DNA of 64,000 nucleotides from a virus (taxonomy: Duplodnaviria > Heunggongvirae > Uroviricota > Caudoviricetes): IMG/VR virus record IMGVR_UViG_3300035701_007101. The stretch is one strand, 5' to 3'. The position numbers were made by a program, and so were the translations under genes. Shown here in pieces: positions 24,754-64,000 of the stretch (positions are counted from its first letter, which is position 1; each line of letters starts with the position of its first letter). The notes under the pieces are model-generated. The model ran no database searches. It saw only the letters and a list, made by a program, of their open reading frames with translations, and was not told the origin of the DNA.

Positions 24754-24824
24754 CCCTCTATAACTCAGTGGTAGAGTGGCGTTCTCTAAAAATGCTGTCA
24801 TCAGTTCAAATCTGATTAGAGGGA
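24754..24824 (+). tRNA. Suppressor tRNA, anticodon CUA (reads UAG amber)
   Basis: Manual cloverleaf fold. Acceptor CCCTCTA/TAGAGGG (7 bp), U8, D-stem ACTC/GAGT with loop AGTGGTA, anticodon stem GCGTT/AATGC, loop C-U-CUA-A-A (anticodon at 24786-24788), variable 4 nt, T-arm ATCAG-TTCAAAT-CTGAT, discriminator A. No encoded CCA. Confidence 0.8.
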
Positions 24825-39296: not shown

Positions 39297-39369
39297 AGAA
39301 AATTTGCTCAATTGGTAGAGCGAAAGATTTAGGATCTTTACGTTGTTGGTTCAAATCCGACATTTTCAT
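39297..39369 (+). tRNA. tRNA with anticodon UAG (Leu codon CUA/CUG by standard rules) but class-I (short variable arm) structure; A1-A72 mismatch
   Basis: Manual fold. Acceptor AGAAAAT/ATTTTCA (6 bp plus 1-72 mismatch), D-arm GCTC-AATTGGTA-GAGC, anticodon stem AAAGA/TCTTT with loop UU-UAG-GA, variable 5 nt, T-arm GTTGG-TTCAAAT-CCGAC. Confidence 0.5.
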
Positions 39370-39604
39370 CCAAACGTTTTATTCAATTTCGCCCTTCTTT
39401 TAATAAAAATTCTGTTGATACATGAGGTTAAACTCATGGTTTTAAAGGGTGCTGGTGAAAAGTCATGATTCCTCCTCGCCCTTTATTTTAAAGGTATAAA
39501 AATTATGAAAATGACAACGAACTTCACTTTTAATTGTAGCAGTTGCTTTAATAGTAGCAACTCAGTGAGGTTCATTTTCTAATTATTCCATTATAGAACA
39601 ACTA

Positions 39605-39643
39605 GAAAAAAGGGCCTCACCTAAAAAATGAGGCCCTTTTTTT
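39605..39643. terminator. Strong bidirectional terminator hairpin
   Basis: GGGCCTCA-cctaaaaaa-TGAGGCCC flanked by an A run 5' and a T run 3'. Confidence 0.55.
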
Positions 39644-40169
39644 ATTGAGAAAAACTATGAAAATGTATATTTTAAGGTATTTGTTTGATATGAATATTAA
39701 ACAATCTAAAAACTTTATTTTAAAGAAATCCCATACCTCAATTTGGAATTTTTTACTTGTAATTTCTAATTTAATGTTTTTATTAAAAACAACATTATCA
39801 CTAAATTCTTCCAATGACTTAGGGATAACAACAATAAATTCATTTAAATTTAAATTACAAGAAAACTATGTACTAAACGCATTTTTAATTTTACATATTT
39901 AAGATTCATAAAGTGAAGATTGTAATTTTTTAAAACTTTGAAATTGTATAAATGAATATGAGTTATGAATTAAAATTAAGTTTTGGTATGATGTGCAGGA
40001 AACAAAACTATTTGAGTTCTTTACAAGGATATGAGATTTTGTCGTGTTCAGAAATATTAAAACGTTATACTATTGTAAAACACGAAAATGATTATGATTT
40101 GGTAGACAATTTGGATTTGTTAGTTGAGTTTTTATATAAGAATATATTTTGAAAATTAGTGTAGTCGCC

Positions 40170-40241
40170 GCCGCCTTAGCTGAGATGGATTAGCGCAAGC
40201 CTGAAGAGCTTGAGAGCACAGTTCGATACTGTGAGACGGCA
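40170..40241 (+). tRNA. tRNA-Phe (anticodon GAA)
   Basis: Manual fold. Acceptor GCCGCCT/AGACGGC (one C-A mismatch), D-arm GCTG-AGATGGAT-TAGC, anticodon stem CAAGC/GCTTG with loop CU-GAA-GA, variable AGAG, T-arm CACAG-TTCGATA-CTGTG, discriminator A. Confidence 0.6.
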
Positions 40242-40252
40242 TTTGAAATCAT

Positions 40253-40327
40253 AGATAGGTACGCAAATTGGCACGCGGCAGGATTGTTACTCCTGTGATT
40301 TTGGGGGTTCGACTCCCTCCCTATCTG
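40253..40327 (+). tRNA. tRNA-Asn (anticodon GUU)
   Basis: Manual fold. Acceptor AGATAGG/CCTATCT (perfect), D-loop AATTGGCA, anticodon stem CAGGA/TCCTG with loop UU-GUU-AC, T-arm GGGGG-TTCGACT-CCCTC, discriminator G. Variable loop is 7 nt by this fold and needs a software check. Confidence 0.55.
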
Positions 40328-40488
40328 TTATTTTAATTATGGAGAAGTATAGGCAATGGATAATAATGCTTTTATAAATTTTCTAATGGAAAGTAGTCGG
40401 ATATTGGTTTGCCGAAGCTATCTGCTAAATAGTTGTTCAATAAAATGAACTGAAAGTTCAATTCTTTCACTTTCCGTTAGGAGATTTT

Positions 40489-41631
40489 ATGTATAAATGC
40501 AATGATTGTAAATTAGATTTTAAAAATCGATCACAATTAGCAAATCATTTTAGATGGAAACATAAACAATGTTTAATTTTCAAATGTAATAAATGCAACA
40601 AAGAAATAACAGATAAAAGCGGTTTGACGATTCATGAAAAATTTTGTACAGGTGTTAAAGAAAAGAAAAACAATATTTGTCCAAAATGTAACTTTACAAT
40701 TAAAACAAACTATAAGAAACATGTTGTTTCATGTAATGGGTTAGGTCCTCGTCGATTAAGAACAAAACATCGCGAGAGAGTTGTTTTAACAAAAGAAAAT
40801 ATTGAAATAATTAGAAAACAATATGATGATAATGTGCCATTAAAAATTATTAGACAGCAAAATAAGTTTTCAAAATTACAAGTTAGACATGCATTAAAAG
40901 GATATAAGAAGCGATCAAAGTCAGACGTTATTAAAAGAAGTCACAAAGAAGGTAGAATGTGCAGACTGCAATTTCACGAATCTTTTGCTGAAAAGTTTTT
41001 TAATGACTTTTTACAAAAATCAGGATATAAATTAGGATTGGATTATATTCGTGAATATAGAGTTTCTTATTATCGAATTGATTTCTTTTTTCAAAATTTG
41101 AATATAGCAATAGAAGTAGATGGATCACAACATTATACATATAATCATCAAATAGAAATTGATAAAAGAAAAGATCAATTATTGAATAATCTTGGTATTA
41201 AAGTAATAAGGTTACCTTGGAAAGTGGTTTGTAATGAGTCAAAAAATACATTAAATGAGGTACTAGATATTATTAAAAACAAAAATGTTGATGAATTTAA
41301 TAATAAACAGAAAATTAAATTAGCAGATTTATTAAAAAAACGAAAAGAAACAAAGAAAAAGCAAAAACAAAGAAAGAAAAATTTGCCAAAAAAATACATT
41401 GAAAAATTAATAATTGCATTAAATAAATGCATTGTATATAAAACATATATGAAGCGCATGAATGATTTAAACAATGTTGATTTAAAAAAATGGGGAACTA
41501 TTTCTGAGCTTTCAAATTTATGGAATGTTTCTCATACTCAGGTTAGACGATATATTGAAAAACATTGTTTGTTAGAAAAATCAAAGACGGTGTGGCAGAG
41601 TTGGTACATGCTACGGTCTGCAAAACCGTAA
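40489..41631 (+). CDS. C2H2 zinc-finger + DUF559/Vsr-like (PD-(D/E)xK) endonuclease-domain protein; candidate tRNA-associated homing-type endonuclease
   Basis: Three C2H2-like fingers ('YKCNDCKLDFKNRSQLANHFRWKH','FKCNKCNKEITDKSGLTIHEKFC','CPKCNF...HVVSC'). 'YRIDFFFQNLNIAIEVDGSQH...LGIKVIRLPW' matches the DUF559 pattern. The 3' end overlaps tRNA-Cys by 46 nt. Confidence 0.5.
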   Translation: MYKCNDCKLDFKNRSQLANHFRWKHKQCLIFKCNKCNKEITDKSGLTIHEKFCTGVKEKKNNICPKCNFTIKTNYKKHVVSCNGLGPRRLRTKHRERVVLTKENIEIIRKQYDDNVPLKIIRQQNKFSKLQVRHALKGYKKRSKSDVIKRSHKEGRMCRLQFHESFAEKFFNDFLQKSGYKLGLDYIREYRVSYYRIDFFFQNLNIAIEVDGSQHYTYNHQIEIDKRKDQLLNNLGIKVIRLPWKVVCNESKNTLNEVLDIIKNKNVDEFNNKQKIKLADLLKKRKETKKKQKQRKKNLPKKYIEKLIIALNKCIVYKTYMKRMNDLNNVDLKKWGTISELSNLWNVSHTQVRRYIEKHCLLEKSKTVWQSWYMLRSAKP

Positions 41632-41658
41632 ACGTCGGTTCAAATCCGATCACCGTCT
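41586..41658 (+). tRNA. tRNA-Cys (anticodon GCA)
   Basis: Manual fold. Acceptor GACGGTG/CACCGTC perfect, D-loop with GG, anticodon stem ACGGT/ACCGT with loop CU-GCA-AA, T-arm GTCGG-TTCAAAT-CCGAT, discriminator U (Cys identity element). Confidence 0.7.
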
Positions 41659-41842
41659 CTTTTTAAATCAATTCTACGATAAATCACATGATTATAATAA
41701 TAAAGGAGGATATTTGACATTATTATAAACTTTTCAAGGAGGTTTTTATAAGATCTATGTGATTAGTTTATTGTTATCTTGTCAGTTTACTGGCTAGATA
41801 TCGTTCTAAAACGAAAATTAACAATTAACGAAGGGATTAAAA

Positions 41843-54735: not shown

Positions 54736-56067
54736 TTAAATTTTTAAACTAAGTTTTTTCCTCTTTTTTCGTTCTACTTCAGATTCTTCATCTTGTAGTT
54801 CAGTTTTTTCAACTACTGATTCAATCTGTGGTTCAGGAGTTTCATCGTCACTATTTGAAACATTCTTTTCAGAATATGCTGAATCTGGTATTTCTTCCTT
54901 GACTTGATCTTTATTGACAAATATTTTTCTGTCTTTAATAAGATCATTGATCTTTTGTTTTATTTCTGGTTTTGTTTCCAAGATTTCATCAAATTTTCTT
55001 TTAGAGAAGTCGTCCAAGTCATTGTATAATTTTTGACCAGATACAGGATTGACAAAATTATATCTTAAAGTTATTTTTCCATCTTTTTTGGTTGTTTGAT
55101 ATTCCTTTATAACACCATTTATGAAAGCAACATCAAATAATTCTTTTTCATTATTTACACCAGAACCATCGTGCATAAGCGTAAATACAATTGCATCTTC
55201 TGGTAAAGGTCCTGCTTTATTTTTCTCAAAAGTAACTTTTACATCATGAGAGAGTATTTCACCTGCCTCATCTCTTTCAACTGAGTCCCAAACTTTTGCC
55301 ACTTTAAGAGCAACTGTGTCATAAAATGGCAGAGCATTACCACCCGTTCGATAATCGCTAACTCGTCCTAAAGAATTGGGATTTTTACGTAATTGATTGA
55401 TAAAGAATAATATTGATCTTGATTCAACGTCTGTTCTAGCCATTGCTGAAGTAACTTTTTTCAAGCCTAAGCCAATAGCTGAAGCCTGTGATCCTCTTTG
55501 TCTTGAGTCACCTAATTGTTTAACTGAATCAATAGTCGAAACAAGTTGAGTAACACTGTCAATACCGATTATTGCATATTTGCCAGGATTAATAACTTTT
55601 AATACTTCACCTGTTTTCTTATCTACTTCATGTTCACCTAAAACTAAAGCATGAATCATATCAAAACATTCTTCAGCAGTTGAACATTTCAATACAATAA
55701 GCTTTGATATATCAACACCAACTTTTTCAGCCCATTCAGCCTGAAATTCAAATTGTCTTTCAGCATCTATTAATACGCATGGTTCATCAGGATATTTCTT
55801 TTGTGCTTCAGCTATTGCTAAATAAAGAAGCAATGTCTTACCTGCGCCTTCCCAGCCAAAAACTTCAATTGTTGAACCTCTAGGATATCCTTTACATTTA
55901 CCAATAGAATTATCCAGCAAGATTGATCCTGATGAAATAGCTTCAATAGGCTTTTTATATTTATCTCCTGATACTTCAATGGAACGACCAAATCTTTCTC
56001 TTATGATATTTGCAGCGCTAATAACGACTGATTTTTTTTCTTTTTCTTTCTTTTCTTCGTGCGACAT
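54736..56067 (-). CDS. RecA-superfamily recombinase (UvsX/RadA-like) with C-terminal extension
   Basis: Walker A 'EVFGWEGAGKTLLLYLAIAEA', Walker B 'AIIGIDSVTQL', RecA-like core. Adjacent to a gp32-like SSB gene. Confidence 0.6.
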   Translation of the reverse strand: MSHEEKKEKEKKSVVISAANIIRERFGRSIEVSGDKYKKPIEAISSGSILLDNSIGKCKGYPRGSTIEVFGWEGAGKTLLLYLAIAEAQKKYPDEPCVLIDAERQFEFQAEWAEKVGVDISKLIVLKCSTAEECFDMIHALVLGEHEVDKKTGEVLKVINPGKYAIIGIDSVTQLVSTIDSVKQLGDSRQRGSQASAIGLGLKKVTSAMARTDVESRSILFFINQLRKNPNSLGRVSDYRTGGNALPFYDTVALKVAKVWDSVERDEAGEILSHDVKVTFEKNKAGPLPEDAIVFTLMHDGSGVNNEKELFDVAFINGVIKEYQTTKKDGKITLRYNFVNPVSGQKLYNDLDDFSKRKFDEILETKPEIKQKINDLIKDRKIFVNKDQVKEEIPDSAYSEKNVSNSDDETPEPQIESVVEKTELQDEESEVERKKRKKLSLKI

Positions 56068-58073: not shown

Positions 58074-61000
58074 TTATTCGTTTGCCATTTCATCATATTT
58101 GGCTAATTTCTCCTTTTGCTCGGGAGTTCTTTCATATAAATTGCCAACACAACAAATATCTAACAAATCTATAAATATTCTGCCCATATATTCGCTAGCA
58201 ACAGCTTCACCAACTAAAATATTATCAACTTTGATAACTTCTTGAACTTTGACTTTTGCATATTTTCCAGTTTCTTGTTTTAAAAGAAAAGCGCTTGAGC
58301 ATCTTCTATTATAACAGGGTATTCTAACTTTGACCATGTTAAATTTTGAATCAGTTAATGTCACATAATAATAACTATTATTAGCTTTACTTGTTTTTTC
58401 AACAATCTCAGAAGCTACTCCCCAAACAGTAGCTTTCATATTTACTTTTGGTTGTGTAAAATTTGTTAACATGACAGCTTTTAATTTTGCAACTTCTCTT
58501 TTTTGACTATCAGATAATTTTGTTCGCCAATCTAAAGCATAAGCATCAATAAACTGTTCATGTTCATATTTTGTATCATTATAATCAACATCTCGTTCCC
58601 ACTTTTTCTCTTTTCTTATTTCTTTGTAATATTTTTCTAATATCTCATTTTGAGTGCCAAATGCATCAAATGCATGACCGCTAATTAAAGCTATCATAGC
58701 TGTTTTTGTTATTTTCTTTATTTGTGATGTTTTCTCGCAAAAATCTTCAAATGAATCAAATGGCTGTGACTGTAAAATATTATTTATAACTGCAGGTCCT
58801 ACATGATTTATATGGCCTAAGCCAAACATAATACTTTTTTCTTCACCATATATTGAAAAACCTTCTTTAGCTCTGCTAATATTTGCAGGAACAATACTTA
58901 TGCCATGACTTATGATCTCTGCAAAATAACTTGTAAACTTTTCCTTCAATGAATTTGACAACAATACTACATAAAACTCCAAAGCATAATATTCTTTAAA
59001 CCACATCATCTGGTAACTTAGAACAGTGTATGCTACTGCATGCGAGCGGTTGAATCCGTAGCGTGCAAATGCGACGCAACTTTGCCACAAAATTTCAGCA
59101 GAAGTTTCAATTAAGTCACCGACGCTTATACAGCCCTTAATAAATTTATCATGAATTTCTTTTCGTTGTTTAGCTTCTTTATCTTTTGCATCAGTGTCTC
59201 GTATTGATTTCATTAAATTTTTTCTAACTGTATCAGTCAAATCTAATGGAAATCCTGCAACCATGTGACACAATCTCATTACATCTTCTTGATAAACTAA
59301 AATACCATAACTTGATTTCAAACATTTTTCAACTAATTTTGATTCGTAATTGAATTCTTTACCATTTTTTCTTTGTGCATATTCATGATGCATTCCCATA
59401 TCTAACGGTCCGGGGCGACCTAGCGCTGTTGCTGTCGTTATGTCAGAAAACGTTGTAGGTTTTATTTCTTTCAATAAAGCTTTCATTAAGTTGCTATTAT
59501 GAACTACAAATCCATTAGCTATATAATTATGATTTATAGCTTCAGGATCAAAACCAATATCATAAACTTCTTTTGTACCAACAAATTGAATGGCTTTAAT
59601 TGGCACATATATATACCTGAACATGTGTCTTGCAAATCGTTTATATATTTTAACTTTAACTTTACCCTTTTTCCATACACGTCTAAGAATATAATCTTTC
59701 TTATAAGTTTTTATTGGTCTAAATTTTGACAACAATTGAGGTCTACATGTTCTTTGACCACTTCTAATGCAACTTGCGCAATTTTCAGCTATACCTTGCA
59801 CATCTACTGATCTATTGTAAAATGCACAATAATGTTGACATCTGAACCGCTCTTGATCAATTAATATTTTGTCATCAACTTTTAATTCTTCTAATCTTTT
59901 CCAACCGCGAGGTGTATAAAATTCATGTAGTAATGCAGTTTCAATACATCTATCGTTATCATATTGAACTGTAACTCTGTAAACATCTCGTACTTGTTTT
60001 TTCATAGCAAATATTTTTTGTCTAATTTTCATTTTTCTAGTTGACGGATTTAAATTAACACAGCTAACTTTGTGTATTGACTTTTTATTTTTTTCAAACA
60101 TATCATATAAGTTTTTGATTCTATATGAGCCAACCCATGAATTGCCGTCAATACATTCAAATTGAAAAATACCATTTGTATCAGTTTGTCTAAATTTTGA
60201 ATAAATTGTGTTATTGCCATCTAACGGCAATTTTGATGAAAATTCTTCATAAAATAATGATGTTATTTGCTTATGTTCAATAGATCGTAAATCAAAATCT
60301 GCTTTATCATTATACGATTTTGTTGATCTAATAATGTCAAGTATTTCTTTTATAATAGATAATGTTTTTAGACCAAGAATATCAAATTTAATGAATCCTG
60401 AAGATTGTAAATCTTTTCGAATGATGCCATCAACCCAGCTTGTTATAAGCTCATTTTTATGTCTCATTAAAGGTATTGTTTCATCAATTTTTGTCGGCGT
60501 TGCAACTACACCTGCGGGATGTTTTGTAAGATGTCTTAATTGGCCTTTTAGTTTGAATAAGATCTCTCTTATTTGAGGATGTCGTCCAAGATATTGTTTT
60601 ATATCATATAGATCCTGTCTAAAGCCATCTTGACCAGATTCAATCATTAAAGTTGCGTCAAACACTTCTTCAGACATTTCATCAACATCATCAGCAAGAT
60701 TTTTAACAACATCATTAGTGTCTTGAATATCAATATCAAATATTCTAGCAATATCTCTTAAAACCATTTTCATTTTCATTTGACCGTAAGAGCCAATAGG
60801 AGCTACATGGTCATTGCCATATTTGTCAATAAAATATTTAATGACAAGTTCTCTTTCATTCATACTAAAATCACTATCAATGTCAGGAAATGAAGATTGC
60901 TTTTTGATTTTTAGAACGATGTTGTTTTTGATTGGATCTGTAGACGATATGTTTAAAAGATAATACATTAAAGAACCGTGCGTTTTAACTTTTACTTTAT

Positions 61001-61160
61001 TTTTAATGAGGCTAATTATGTAGTCTTGTAAATTTTGAACATTGACATTTGTTAATTCTCTTTCAAGTGCTTGAATATATTTATCATTTTCATGTAATGA
61101 TAGTTCTTTTAATTTTTTCTCACACAAATATTGAATAAAATCAATTTTTTTTATATCCAT
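58074..61160 (-). CDS. dnaE: DNA polymerase III alpha (DnaE) C-terminal part: palm, fingers, OB; carries an in-frame mini-intein; begins with a 90-aa non-DnaE leader
   Basis: 'FPDIDSDFS' (catalytic Asp pair, vs E. coli PDFDVDFC), 'KFDILGLKTL', 'ALGRPGPLDMGMHHEYAQRKNG', 'GFNRSHAVAYTVLSYQMMWFKEYYALEFY' (vs [27 protein letters not shown]). The intein interrupts between 'FQFE' and 'SNLMKALL'. Confidence 0.8.
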   Translation of the reverse strand: MDIKKIDFIQYLCEKKLKELSLHENDKYIQALERELTNVNVQNLQDYIISLIKNKVKVKTHGSLMYYLLNISSTDPIKNNIVLKIKKQSSFPDIDSDFSMNERELVIKYFIDKYGNDHVAPIGSYGQMKMKMVLRDIARIFDIDIQDTNDVVKNLADDVDEMSEEVFDATLMIESGQDGFRQDLYDIKQYLGRHPQIREILFKLKGQLRHLTKHPAGVVATPTKIDETIPLMRHKNELITSWVDGIIRKDLQSSGFIKFDILGLKTLSIIKEILDIIRSTKSYNDKADFDLRSIEHKQITSLFYEEFSSKLPLDGNNTIYSKFRQTDTNGIFQFECIDGNSWVGSYRIKNLYDMFEKNKKSIHKVSCVNLNPSTRKMKIRQKIFAMKKQVRDVYRVTVQYDNDRCIETALLHEFYTPRGWKRLEELKVDDKILIDQERFRCQHYCAFYNRSVDVQGIAENCASCIRSGQRTCRPQLLSKFRPIKTYKKDYILRRVWKKGKVKVKIYKRFARHMFRYIYVPIKAIQFVGTKEVYDIGFDPEAINHNYIANGFVVHNSNLMKALLKEIKPTTFSDITTATALGRPGPLDMGMHHEYAQRKNGKEFNYESKLVEKCLKSSYGILVYQEDVMRLCHMVAGFPLDLTDTVRKNLMKSIRDTDAKDKEAKQRKEIHDKFIKGCISVGDLIETSAEILWQSCVAFARYGFNRSHAVAYTVLSYQMMWFKEYYALEFYVVLLSNSLKEKFTSYFAEIISHGISIVPANISRAKEGFSIYGEEKSIMFGLGHINHVGPAVINNILQSQPFDSFEDFCEKTSQIKKITKTAMIALISGHAFDAFGTQNEILEKYYKEIRKEKKWERDVDYNDTKYEHEQFIDAYALDWRTKLSDSQKREVAKLKAVMLTNFTQPKVNMKATVWGVASEIVEKTSKANNSYYYVTLTDSKFNMVKVRIPCYNRRCSSAFLLKQETGKYAKVKVQEVIKVDNILVGEAVASEYMGRIFIDLLDICCVGNLYERTPEQKEKLAKYDEMANE
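59496..60155 (-). mobile_element. Mini-intein (220 aa) inside DnaE, with Cys-rich insertion; no LAGLIDADG/HNH motif seen
   Basis: Begins 'CIDGNSWV' (block A, Cys1). Ends 'VYDIGFDPEAINHNYIANGFVVHN' followed by Ser+1 (canonical blocks F/G). The flanking sequences re-join to a conserved DnaE stretch (FQFE|SNLMKALLKEI... equivalent to E. coli FQLES-RGMKDLIKRL). Confidence 0.7.
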
Positions 61161-61177
61161 TATTATCCTTATGCTTT

Positions 61178-61510
61178 TTAATTGTCGAGAGTTACAATTT
61201 TTACTTTTCTCGACGTTAATAGCGTTTGAAGATCAATATTAAAGGTGTTGTAATCTAGAATCCAACATTTTTTATCTATGAAAGTGTCGCCGTCAATATC
61301 AAATTGCTTGAAATAAATAGCTTGCCATGAAATTGATTTATTCAAAGTTGTATTACAATACATTAATAATGATGAAAAACTTTCAAGCATTATCATGGAG
61401 CTAAATTTTTGTATAAAATAGTCAAACCACATATTTCGTTGTTTGATGCCTGTAAGTTGTACAAAATCAAATAACGTTAAATTTTTATCAACAATAAACA
61501 TTATTTTCAT
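61178..61510 (-). CDS. Hypothetical protein
   Basis: ORF between the DnaE parts. Confidence 0.35.
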   Translation of the reverse strand: MKIMFIVDKNLTLFDFVQLTGIKQRNMWFDYFIQKFSSMIMLESFSSLLMYCNTTLNKSISWQAIYFKQFDIDGDTFIDKKCWILDYNTFNIDLQTLLTSRKVKIVTLDN

Positions 61511-61532
61511 AATTTAGATCTCATCATTAACA

Positions 61533-62162
61533 TTACCTCGTAGCTAAAGAGCAAATGTTCTCTTTAGAAATATCAACGTCTATTTGCTTACTTTGAATAG
61601 TAAGTTTTGCAATTGCTTTATCTTTTATAGATACAAACAATTCATTTCCCTTTAATTCAACTGATAATTGTTCATGTAATTTATCGACATCAATATTTTG
61701 TCGTAACATCCATGAAGGTGAAAACGGATCACTATGACGAAATCTTGGTACTTGAAAAGACGGTCTTCCAAATGTACCTGTTACACCTGATAAACCTGTA
61801 ACACCTGATAAACCTGTAACACCCTGTATACCCATATATCCTACAAGTTCAGCAGGCGCACCTACAAATTCAGTGCCAGTTGCACCACCAATAAGCCCGT
61901 TAGTTACCATGTGTCCGTTAGATGAAAGTGCAACACTTTGAACTCGTCTTTCAAAAAGAGTATCACGGGAAAGACATTCTTGACTTATTTGTTCATTTTC
62001 TATTTCATCGTTACAAAGTAAATTAAATTTTTCAAAAGATTTTTTACTAACAATATCTACTTTGTCAACAACTATATCGTCTACTCTATTATAGCTTCTA
62101 AAAAATAATTTTTTCTTAACTAAATCTAACCCATTAATTGCTAAAAATTTTTCATTTGACAT
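61533..62162 (-). CDS. Collagen-like (Gly-X-Y x8) repeat protein
   Basis: 'GIQGVTGLSGVTGLSGVTGTFGRP'. Underlying 18-bp tandem DNA repeat at 61772..61832. Confidence 0.45.
   Translation of the reverse strand: MSNEKFLAINGLDLVKKKLFFRSYNRVDDIVVDKVDIVSKKSFEKFNLLCNDEIENEQISQECLSRDTLFERRVQSVALSSNGHMVTNGLIGGATGTEFVGAPAELVGYMGIQGVTGLSGVTGLSGVTGTFGRPSFQVPRFRHSDPFSPSWMLRQNIDVDKLHEQLSVELKGNELFVSIKDKAIAKLTIQSKQIDVDISKENICSLATR
61772..61832. repeat. 18-bp tandem repeat (cctgataaacctgtaaca x2 plus partial copies) encoding the Gly-X-Y tract
   Basis: Direct adjacent repeats read from the plus strand. Confidence 0.6.
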
Positions 62163-62923
62163 TTTAGCTTCTTTATAGTTCTTTCATAGTCCTCAAATCT
62201 AATTTTTGCTATTTTTGATCGATCACTTGTCCTGACTACAATACCTTCTGGTTTTCCACCCTCTCCGTCAATAGGTGCATTTGTCTTACCGGGAAGCATA
62301 GTTTTTAACCAAGCAAATGTCTCTATTAAATCTTTAGGCGGACAATATGACTCTAATCTTGGAACTATTGGTATATCGACTTTTCTTGCTATATCTTGAA
62401 ATTGCTGTTCATTAAGAAATTTTTGATGACCATGATCACGAAGAAAAGAAATTGACTGAATTGAATTATTCACTAAAAAACTATCAAAATCATATTCAGA
62501 ATCATAATAAGCGACATCGAATAATCTAAAACCAGGTGCACGACAACTTGTATAATTTTTAGCGTTATTAATATTCAATCCATATACTTCACCAAAAAAT
62601 ATCCATACATAACTTGTTAAATTTATATCATTGAACTTTGACATTAATGGTCTTAAAGTATCTACTATGCCCATTGATGGATTGTAAATTAAATCACCAC
62701 TAGCAGTAAGTAGTTCTTCCCTTGAGCCTATAAAATAAGACTTATCATAAAATAGAATGATCCTTGCATTAGTGCCATCAATCTTCTCTGTAAGAATTAC
62801 TGGATCATTAAATTCAACTTGAACATTATTTACTAAACTACCTTTATCACCAAGTTCATGATAAGTAAGAATTGAAGGATATTTTGCTGCTGAATTTAAT
62901 TTGTCTAAATTTGTCTTAATCAT
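62141..62923 (-). CDS. ATP-dependent RNA ligase (Rnl2-like nucleotidyltransferase)
   Basis: Motif I 'VILTEKIDGTNARII' (KxDGxN, cf. T4 Rnl2 EKIHGTNF), motif IV-like 'FFGEVYG', motif V-like 'KPEGIVVRT', Lys motif 'KIAKIRFEDY'. Confidence 0.55.
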   Translation of the reverse strand: MIKTNLDKLNSAAKYPSILTYHELGDKGSLVNNVQVEFNDPVILTEKIDGTNARIILFYDKSYFIGSREELLTASGDLIYNPSMGIVDTLRPLMSKFNDINLTSYVWIFFGEVYGLNINNAKNYTSCRAPGFRLFDVAYYDSEYDFDSFLVNNSIQSISFLRDHGHQKFLNEQQFQDIARKVDIPIVPRLESYCPPKDLIETFAWLKTMLPGKTNAPIDGEGGKPEGIVVRTSDRSKIAKIRFEDYERTIKKLKCQMKNF

Positions 62924-63000: not shown

Positions 63001-64000
63001 TTATTCATTATCCAACCTAATGAGTCTATTATTATACCATTCTTCAAATTCATTTTCTATATATAATTCGTTCTTATCTTCTATTTCTTTAATCTCACCA
63101 ACAGATAAGTCATATACAGCCATACTTCTTGACATACTCAAAAATCTCTCAAATAACAAATCATGCTTTAATGGATCTATATTTGTAATATCCATTAAGT
63201 AACATGCAAGAGAACCTGCGCTCGACCCACGTGCTGGGCCTACAAGCACACCATGTTCTTTGGCCCATTTAATATAATCAGCTACAATTAAAAAATAATC
63301 AGACATTTCTGTGCGCCTGATAACACTTAATTCATATTTTATTCTTTTTGTATATTGACTATTTTCTTCATACCAATGATCTTCAGCTTTTCTATCCCAT
63401 CCATCTCTAGTCAACTGAACTAAATAATCGTAACTGCTCAAATCACCAGTATCAATTTTTGGTAATTTTTCTTTAGTATCCCAGTCCCAAGAATCAATTT
63501 TTTTAGCTACTTTTATTGTATTATCAAGAGCCACTTGAAAGTCTTCAAGGCTTAAGTATTTATAATGACCTTGATCTATATATGCATCAATCATTTGATG
63601 TCTGTCTTTAAACCAGAAGTCTTTAGTTGAAAACTCCCAAACTCTTTTAAATTTTTTCTTTCCAGTAACAATGTCTAAAATTTCATTAAAAGTAATTCCG
63701 TCATCTTTATCTCTTAATGGTTTAAACTTTTTAAATCTATCTAACTCAATAAAACTATTGTAAGTTTTACGTATATGATTTGGATCAACATCATTTCCAA
63801 TTGCATCTAAAATTTCACCCATTGCATGCAATCTTTCTTTATCTTTCATTGTAACTTGTTCACCATCATCTTTAGAACCCAACATTAGTGATATTTCTTG
63901 AGCTTTAGAATCAAGTTTATCTAAATAATGAACGTCGTTTGTTACAATGAAATTAATGTTTAATTCTTTAGCAATCTCAACTAATATCTTATTTACATAT
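63001..64000 (-). CDS. dnaE: DnaE N-terminal part (PHP domain to start of palm), 5' partial (ORF continues beyond window end); ends with a 40-aa non-DnaE tail
   Basis: '[54 protein letters not shown]' vs E. coli '[59 protein letters not shown]'. Own translation upstream of 63885 shows '[10 protein letters not shown]' (PHP) with no stop to nt 64000. Confidence 0.75.
   Translation of the reverse strand, partial: [332 protein letters not shown]

Follow-up and report, generated by a model that had tools for sequence, protein, structure and literature searches.

Introduction

The Ssp DnaB mini-intein was engineered by deleting a LAGLIDADG endonuclease. In I-TevI, a phage homing endonuclease, a Cys4 finger together with NUMOD3 makes up the non-catalytic part that serves DNA binding and spacing. 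NUMODs are described in I-TevI (PMC3239194). According to a preprint, the yeast HO endonuclease and its relatives consist of a degenerated intein scaffold that carries zinc-finger modules (bioRxiv 10.1101/2020.01.20.913210). In the present work, an in-frame insertion of 220 codons in the gene for the C-part of the replicative polymerase DnaE was analysed in a tailed phage (Caudoviricetes; IMG/VR record IMGVR_UViG_3300035701_007101). The whole stretch of DNA that was analysed, 64,000 nucleotides in length, is called the window. The cyanobacterial DnaE inteins occupy another site, which we take to be the ...Y|CFNKSH motif (the C-extein starting with CFNKSH) and which matches GFNR|SH at 59040-59057 of the window.

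The best overall explanation of the results, adopted with good confidence, is that the insertion is a class 1 cis-splicing intein, that it lacks a nuclease, and that its Cys4 module was probably derived from an endonuclease. The separate parts of this explanation carry different weights and are evaluated in turn below.

Position of the Insertion in the DnaE Gene

The host gene is a minus-strand open reading frame (ORF) at 58074..61160, which encodes the DnaE C-part precursor of 1028 amino acids (aa) and, read with the standard code, is free of in-frame stops. The virus, of jumbo-phage size, has a DnaE in two pieces, and the C-terminal subunit is the host protein of the insertion. The insertion occupies 59496..60155 on the minus strand, in frame, and covers residues 336-555 of the 1028-aa protein. 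Residue 336 is the start of the string CIDGNSWV, residue 555 is the last of NGFVVHN, and Ser comes next. An earlier note on this DNA, made from the letters alone, had placed the element at 59496-60155, which proved exact to the base; the strand was not given there. The parts of the element and its flanks are listed as follows, together with the predicted local distance difference test (pLDDT) of the AlphaFold model described below.

59496..60155, minus strand: whole intein, 220 aa; identified by boundary strings, PF14890, TIGR01443, AlphaFold and Foldseek
60153-60155, minus strand: Cys1 codon TGT, the block A nucleophile
59856..60155, minus strand: N-terminal lobe of the HINT domain, intein aa 1-100, with Cys1 of block A and block B; pLDDT 88-98
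59925-59927, minus strand: codon of His77 in block B (...ETALLHEF), aligned to the Ssp and Npu DnaB inteins
59733..59855, minus strand: Cys-rich module, intein aa 101-141, at the canonical endonuclease insertion point; pLDDT 81-89
59622..59732, minus strand: basic linker, intein aa 142-178, containing a 27-aa lineage-specific insertion; pLDDT 49-65
59496..59621, minus strand: C-terminal lobe of the HINT domain, intein aa 179-220, with blocks F and G and the TIGR01443 match; pLDDT 92-98
59559-59561, minus strand: codon of Asp199 in block F (VYDIGF...HNYIANG), which also holds His209, in the C-terminal lobe
59496-59498, minus strand: codon AAT of Asn220 in block G (FVVHN, with His219), the end of the intein
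59493..59495, minus strand: Ser codon AGC, the +1 nucleophile and first residue of the C-extein
60156..61160, minus strand: N-extein, aa 1-335 of the C-part; palm with PDIDSDF and FDILGL, ending ...TNGIFQFE; Pfam DNA_pol3_alpha
58074..59492, minus strand: C-extein after Ser+1, including the stop codon; fingers, HhH and C-terminal region; Pfam DNA_pol3_finger and HHH_6

The plus strand across 59496..60155 was crowded with stop codons. The guanine-cytosine (GC) content did not differ among the intein (0.29), the gene (0.30) and the window (0.30), and the chance of a 220-codon open frame at the window composition of 30% GC was about 2e-8. An intron in place of an intein was considered and rejected on account of this open frame and because no Rfam family was found in the region.

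In a multiple alignment, the spliced flanks aligned without gaps to eight uninterrupted DnaEs over GIFQFE|S, and single tblastn and blastp segments spanned the rejoined junction in matches to intact phage and bacterial DnaEs. The exteins thus rejoin into a conserved DnaE segment, as had been proposed in the earlier note. The insertion falls between the Glu and the Ser of the near-invariant GIFQFE|S motif where the fingers domain begins, at about position 610 of the NF004226/PRK05673 DnaE model, and the NCBIfam DnaE models aligned residues 555-851 of the protein to model positions 610-901. Ser+1 is the counterpart of the conserved Ser in the FQ(F/L)E-S of uninterrupted DnaE. The intein-less type of this DnaE site is GGTATTTTTCAATTTGAAAGC, and the DNA junction of the uninterrupted allele is ...TTTCAATTTGAA|AGC....

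Identification as a Class 1 Intein

Homologues of the element were recovered by exhaustive phmmer and by a search with the whole host protein in a collection of 5.8 billion proteins. With the intein alone, a word-seeded protein search gave one weak match, an intein profile reached ThyX inteins only, and a scan of IMG/VR returned nothing. The resulting phage clade comprised 21 DnaE C-parts that were 52-100% identical over the best local alignment and lay on contigs of up to 416 kb; the spliced exteins of the clade were 58-80% identical to that of the window. Five IMG/VR viral contigs also belonged to the clade, and one of them (L005) added a 22nd intein. Among GenBank phages, there was no nucleotide match, and the sole match to the intein was a 35-aa block F/G segment in Acinetobacter phage ME3.

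The excised element matched the Pfam family PF14890 (Intein_splicing) with 38.0 bits against a gathering score of 35.8. The TIGR01443 model of the intein C-terminal region gave 24.2 and 18.3 bits and was over its cut-off of 15.6 on both the element and the full protein, whereas the TIGR01445 model of the intein N-terminal region gave 16.7 bits, under its cut-off of 24.5. The best sequence matches in PDB were the Npu and Ssp DnaB mini-inteins (E 1e-3), with blocks B, F and G aligned; the alignment spanned block B (…IETALLHEFYTPRGWKRLEEL…) and blocks F/G (…EVYDIGF…HNYIANGFVVHN). An AlphaFold model computed from the single sequence reached a pLDDT of 38 and was discarded. It was replaced by a run on 28 aligned homologues, for which the pLDDT was 85.9 and the predicted template modelling score (pTM) was 0.81, with a HINT core above 90. 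When this model was compared with PDB by Foldseek, 45 matches were obtained at E<=1e-3, all of them of the HINT family and nearly all inteins, with template modelling scores (TM) on the target of <=0.83. The top matches were DnaB, GyrA, DnaX and RecA inteins, and the matches among predicted viral structures were intein-bearing viral proteins.

The catalytic set of a class 1 intein was recognized in full and consisted of Cys1, His77 in block B, Asp199 and His209 in block F, His219-Asn220 in block G, and Ser+1. Across the 21 inteins of the clade, C1, H77, D199, N210-G215, V218, H219, N220 and Ser+1 were invariant. H77 was also invariant across the 28 aligned inteins, and H209 was kept in >=90%. 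The invariance of C1, H77, D199, H219, N220 and Ser+1 in inteins that are about 50% identical overall argues for selection for splicing. The earlier note had read the Cys start at CIDGNSWV, block A, blocks F/G and the following Ser as intein features; this reading was borne out by the curated hidden Markov models (HMMs), the PDB sequence matches and the fold matches of the AlphaFold model. A search with Hint-domain HMMs had been proposed there as a check, and in this search both Intein_splicing and TIGR01443 were above their cut-offs on the element.

Two points weigh against this identification. In the full-length protein, PF14890 scored 32.0 bits, under the gathering score, so that the threshold was passed only by the excised element. 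The Thr of the block B TxxH motif is replaced by Ala in the window (E-T-A-L-L-H), with a Thr one position upstream; the other 20 members of the clade have Thr (17) or Ser (3). Loss of the block B Thr slows the first splicing step in some characterised inteins. The precursor-trap structure of Ssp DnaE T69A (4GIG) was among the Foldseek matches.

The substitution in block B, which occurs in the window sequence only, is also what favours an inactivated intein that is tolerated as an insertion domain in the polymerase fingers, together with the larger size of the element than that of its relatives through an extra insertion. All other catalytic residues are intact and clade-invariant, however, and the block B Thr, common and not universal, is absent from many natural inteins; its loss therefore bears on the splicing rate and does not disqualify the element. 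Furthermore, the element interrupts a near-invariant DnaE motif, where a replicative polymerase would hardly tolerate a permanent insert of 220 aa. At least five contigs, derived from two or more independent samples, encode the identical protein, a sign that the phage is viable. Inactivation is therefore regarded as very improbable, and, judging from its residues and its modelled fold, the window element is very probably a real class 1 intein that should be competent for splicing.

Absence of an Endonuclease

No Pfam family was found at E<=10 in the insert of about 80-90 aa between the HINT lobes, and the element had no Pfam matches to LAGLIDADG, HNH, GIY-YIG or PD-(D/E)xK families. The sole sub-threshold Pfam match elsewhere in the element was PT-HINT, which belongs to the HINT family. 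An HMM of the nuclease of the bacterial relatives, described below, gave about 0 bits on the element. The only overlapping ORFs of >=50 aa in alternative frames encode 76 aa (plus strand) and 56 aa (minus strand), and neither had Pfam matches. No free-standing or out-of-frame nuclease was found within or adjoining the intein. The absence of LAGLIDADG and HNH motifs noted earlier was thus confirmed by Pfam both in frame and in the other frames. An intein without a nuclease is no longer self-mobile.

The Cys-Rich Module and the Basic Linker

The string RCQHYCAFYN...CASCIRSGQRTC, quoted in the earlier note as a possible zinc-binding module, is present in the intein, with Cys residues at 106, 110, 126, 129 and 137. 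C110, C126 and C129 were invariant in all 21 homologous inteins. The fourth Cys was at the C137 position in 18 of them (C-x15-CxxC-x4-8-C); in the three most divergent members, it lay three residues past the first (CxxC-x9-CxxC), with no trailing Cys. C106 is an additional Cys beside the presumed ligands C110, C126, C129 and C137. Four ligands are always kept and one of them is relocated, which is the pattern expected of a maintained tetrahedral metal site. In the AlphaFold model, the module forms two short strands followed by a helix that starts at CxxC (pLDDT 81-89). The module outside the Cys residues was 32-38% identical on average, compared with 52-60% for the HINT lobes, and this low identity fits a small structural knuckle. 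Relatives gave only sub-threshold matches to zf-UBR (19.6 bits), Zn_ribbon_6 (17.9), DZR (13.8) and Zn_ribbon_TiaS (17.5).

Against these observations, the module of the window itself had no match to a Pfam zinc ribbon, and zinc binding is inferred from sequence alone. Nevertheless, the earlier suggestion has been strengthened by three invariant Cys residues in 21 inteins and by a fourth ligand that is always present at one of two positions, and the module is likely to be a zinc-binding knuckle or ribbon of the Cys4 type. In the searchable literature, no description of a conserved Cys4 knuckle in a nuclease-less intein was found, and nothing usable was found on the nomenclature of DnaE intein sites or on zinc-containing mini-inteins.

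The linker that follows the module contains a 27-aa basic insertion at intein residues 146-172 (KKDYILRRVWKKGKVKVKIYKRFARHM), with 12 Lys or Arg and 1 Asp or Glu. The insertion is lineage-specific: 19 of the 20 relatives are without it, and P0152, which is closest to the window, has an insertion there too, but a different one. The possibility that this insertion and that of P0152 are remnants of a PD-(D/E)xK core ('YTPDFY...EVKG') was rejected, with about 0 bits for the nuclease HMM. An origin by local duplication was also rejected, as no meaningful DNA repeats were found. The sole explanation offered is that the 27 residues may reflect the accumulation of insertions and deletions in the loop left by the lost endonuclease.

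It was also considered whether the Cys4 module is a functional addition, which would make splicing conditional on zinc or redox state, or would bind DNA as a tether of the precursor or as an aid to a nuclease acting in trans. The module is kept in all 21 nuclease-less inteins, with compensation of the fourth ligand where it has moved, the adjoining linker is strongly basic, and the ribbon precedes NUMOD3 DNA-binding motifs in the endonuclease-bearing relatives. However, the positions other than Cys evolve faster than the HINT lobes, as is typical of a structural knuckle, and the basic insertion is confined to one lineage and poorly modelled. A nuclease to be aided, free-standing or out of frame, was also missing in and beside the intein. 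A functional role of this kind is considered unlikely.

Endonuclease-Bearing Bacterial Inteins and the Origin of the Module

Among the phmmer matches that were examined, those with an unbroken best alignment that starts at residue 1 and extends across the Cys module (query 1 to about 130-145) were DnaE inteins at the same site. These bacterial inteins have 371-391 aa and are located at FQxE|...|S(x)GM or one residue over, at FQVEG|...|SGM. Their architecture consists of a CxxC...CxxC ribbon, NUMOD3 motifs, and then a PD-(D/E)xK domain resembling Phage_endo_I. The E...PD...ExK residues are present in the nuclease, and its Pfam matches are to Phage_endo_I, one of them above threshold. A scan of GTDB, with one genome per species, gave 97 stretches encoding relatives of the query, and in all 45 parsable loci, the intein was in DnaE at this site. 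The carriers belong to Chloroflexota (including a metagenome-assembled genome (MAG) of Thermoflexus hugenholtzii JAD2), Patescibacteria, Acidobacteriota, Acidimicrobiaceae, Elusimicrobiota and Clostridia. The members of this bacterial family are as follows.

Loci L010-L061: bacterial family members, genomic loci
P0005, P0024, P0035, P0036, P0039, P0049, P0090 and P0124: bacterial family members, proteins

In an unsupervised MAFFT alignment, the four Cys residues of the bacterial ribbon fell in the same columns as the Cys residues of the phage clade. According to these results, the module may be a relic of the ribbon of an endonuclease composed of a zinc ribbon, NUMOD3 and PD-(D/E)xK, and this origin is given a slight preference on the sequence comparisons.

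Several observations count against the relic origin. In a comparison of profiles restricted to the module (8 and 42 sequences), the similarity to the endonuclease ribbon had a P of about 0.02 and an hhalign probability of <3%, which is not significant by the standards of database searches and too weak to decide the matter, so that the relic origin remains an inference. The knuckle spacing is x9 or x15 in the phage clade and x13-14 in 42 of 43 bacterial inteins. When ranked by phmmer, the endonuclease-bearing DnaE inteins were not clearly nearer to the HINT core than the ThyX inteins were. The insertion point of the endonuclease is alike in all inteins, and its positional equivalence is therefore weak evidence of common origin.

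The first two of these observations would also be expected if the module had been acquired independently in the phage lineage, as a metal-stabilised hairpin that arose de novo or as a captured unrelated knuckle not homologous to the bacterial ribbon, and CxxC knuckles arise easily. However, the insertion sites in the host agree to within one residue, and the module occupies the same place in the fold, directly behind the same beta-strand. The alignment of Cys to Cys came from MAFFT without supervision, the phmmer alignments were continuous through the module for the same-site DnaE inteins examined, and the three most divergent phage members show the classical CxxC...CxxC of the bacterial inteins. 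Independent acquisition is thus the less probable of the two origins, although it deserves to be taken seriously.

For the preferred relic origin, the Cys4 ribbon would be the surviving N-terminal DNA-binding part of an ancestral in-frame homing endonuclease, and a likely reason for its retention is that it closes the loop left after deletion of the nuclease and makes this loop stable. The earlier description of a Cys-rich insertion instead of an endonuclease therefore held in that no nuclease was found, but the insertion is probably what remains of an endonuclease, given the bacterial inteins at the same site. Moreover, the results point to the ribbon, NUMOD3 and T7-endonuclease-I-like PD-(D/E)xK arrangement as a putative in-frame endonuclease architecture that is widespread in bacterial inteins. 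No description of this architecture was found in the searchable literature.

Fixation of the Intein and a Second Intein Site

An intein was located at exactly FQFE|C...HN|S in all 21 members of the clade, with 176-227 aa and typically 176-199 aa, and all five IMG/VR loci carried the FQFE|S intein. No intein-free allele was found among the 21 clade members and the five IMG/VR loci. One IMG/VR locus (L007) that had been a candidate for such an allele turned out to be a tblastn artefact; its ORF holds both inteins. The mean pairwise identity was 0.50 for the intein and 0.71 for the extein, and the two diverged together (Mantel r=0.82, p=1e-4). From the lack of an empty allele and this co-divergence, the intein appears to be fixed and vertically inherited in the phage clade. 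For dN/dS in the intein regions, the available DNA pairs were <=62% identical at the protein level, and the synonymous sites were therefore saturated.

A second intein site, GFNR|SH, lies in the same gene at 59040..59057 on the minus strand and is uninterrupted in the window. A comparison of insertion sites with the cyanobacterial DnaE inteins had been suggested in the earlier note; those inteins use a different site from the window intein, and the position equivalent to theirs is this empty one. In the relatives, the second site (GFN(K/R)|C...HN|SH) is filled in 8 of 21 (P0152, P0153, P0157, P0160, P0162, P0002, P0165 and P0168). Six of these inteins have 269 aa and two have 176-177 aa. An HNH motif was seen in the intein sequence of P0002, and Pfam PF01844 was matched on three of the six proteins with 269-aa inteins. 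The second-site intein is sporadic and presumably mobile, in contrast with the fixed FQFE|S intein.

The Split DnaE Gene and Its Neighbourhood

The DnaE of this phage is encoded in two pieces. The features upstream of the C-part gene are listed as follows.

63001..64000, minus strand: 3' portion of the DnaE N-part (PHP and start of the palm); the full gene encodes 614 aa and starts outside the window
61178..62923, minus strand: region between the DnaE halves, with three unrelated ORFs, an RNA ligase (62141-62923), a Gly-rich 209-aa ORF (61533-62162) and a 110-aa ORF (61178-61510)

The 294-aa ORF at 63001-63885 on the minus strand, which starts from an internal Met, is the portion of the N-part within the window; its reading as a short protein is an artefact of the window edge. 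On the identical contigs L001 and L002, the N-part has 614 aa and starts about 845 nucleotides past the window end. The alignment of the N-part to a reference DnaE ended at reference residue 405. Both halves cover reference residues 376-405, an overlap of about 30 residues. The first approximately 90 aa of the C-part (60890-61160, minus strand) and the end of the N-part (63001-63130, minus strand) correspond to Pfam positions 3-89 and 2-99, respectively, in a weak match. By this comparison, the N-part ends with a GS..GSL..Y.L.IT.IDP segment that seems to recur, in degenerate form, at the C-part start.

DnaE was split in all relatives examined, with an N-part of 614-623 aa. The cargo between the halves ranged from one to five genes, with three in the window, five in L003 and one in L004, and gene insertion seems to have a hot spot at the break. 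The 45-aa tail of the N-part showed no HINT signal, nor did the first 90 aa of the C-part. With no HINT motifs at either terminus, the two halves are separated by a plain gene split. A trans-splicing intein at the break was rejected for the same reason, and the C-part start weakly matches DnaE. The earlier claim that one gene carries two different types of interruption was upheld: the split is real and conserved in the relatives, and the intein lies in the C-part.

Other features of these genomes were also observed. The 209-aa ORF at 61533-62162 on the minus strand contains a short collagen-like repeat, GVTGLSGVTGLSGVTG (Pfam Collagen, E=0.044). The RecA-like gene of the window (54736-56067, minus strand, 443 aa) is uninterrupted. 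The RecA-like gene of L003 (18113-18982 of the 416-kb contig) encodes 802 aa with a weak LAGLIDADG_2 match; judged by that sequence, it probably carries an intein, at another sporadically filled site in this phage group. A transfer RNA (tRNA) gene at 24754-24824 on the plus strand has the anticodon CTA and would be of the amber-suppressor type (tRNA-Pyl by its ARAGORN label; Rfam tRNA, 60 bits), and part of the phage genes may be recoded at TAG. Five further tRNA genes at 39297-41659 on the plus strand (Leu-TAG, Phe-GAA, Asn-GTT, Ser-GCT and Cys-GCA) form a cluster that fits a large phage genome.

Proposed Splicing Mechanism and Implications

The following steps are proposed from the residues that were identified. 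After translation, Cys1 would carry out an N-S acyl shift. The resulting thioester would be attacked by Ser+1. Asn220 would then cyclise, helped by His219, His209 and Asp199, and an O-N shift would give the ligated DnaE C-subunit of 808 aa. This subunit would work with the separately encoded N-subunit of 614 aa. For annotation, the 1028-aa 'DnaE' is thus to be regarded as a precursor, with a mature C-subunit of 808 aa and a separate 614-aa N-subunit.

One gene displays both ends of the homing cycle, with a nuclease-less intein that is fixed and a second site that is sporadically filled. The Cys4 knuckle that was kept suggests that a non-LAGLIDADG endonuclease can leave a portion of itself structurally locked in the splicing domain. 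There is a small chance that this module, which has persisted for millions of years since the nuclease was lost, acts as a switch that senses metal or redox state or as a tether that binds DNA. If that were true, the state of the infected cell would govern the maturation of the replicative polymerase, and the intein would be regulatory and not a decayed parasite. Furthermore, compact Ser+1 inteins of AT-rich phages, possibly with a metal-dependent variant, could be of interest to protein engineers.

Comparison With Known Systems

The cyanobacterial DnaB mini-inteins (Ssp and Npu; PDB 1MI8, 4O1R and 6FRG) share with the window element the class 1 HINT domain, Cys1, the block B His, the block F Asp and His, and the terminal HN. 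They were also the best matches by fold (Foldseek E 4e-8 to 1e-7, target TM 0.71-0.81). They differ in their helicase host and in the lack of a Cys4 module, and their identity to the window element is only 16-18%. The cyanobacterial split DnaE inteins (Ssp and Npu; PDB 1ZD7 and 4KL5) have the same host family and, by Foldseek, the class 1 HINT fold, but they are naturally split, act by trans-splicing, occupy another insertion site and have no Cys module.

The bacterial DnaE inteins of NJM41472.1 (Anaerolineae), MBA3534226.1 (Ardenticatenales), MCL5407358.1 (Patescibacteria) and the Thermoflexus hugenholtzii JAD2 MAG are found in the same host protein and at the same site as the window intein. 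Their HINT domains are homologous to it (E down to 2e-13), and the ribbon is at the same point of the fold. Unlike the window intein, they have about 200 extra residues with NUMOD3 and the nuclease, are potentially mobile and reside in cellular hosts. The finger and NUMOD3 of I-TevI resemble the ribbon and NUMOD3 of these bacterial inteins; the comparison is one of architecture, and no sequence similarity is claimed. I-TevI differs from them in that it is a GIY-YIG enzyme encoded by a group I intron, is not in frame in an intein and has its nuclease first. The HO-type proteins, as presented in the preprint, are eukaryotic and have an active nuclease, and their zinc finger is fused to a degenerated intein instead of being nested at the endonuclease point; no homology to the window element is claimed.

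Current understanding is not overturned by this finding. Class 1 inteins that lack a nuclease and interrupt a large-phage replication protein are of a well-known kind, and the conserved Cys4 knuckle is the feature that makes the present intein modestly unusual.

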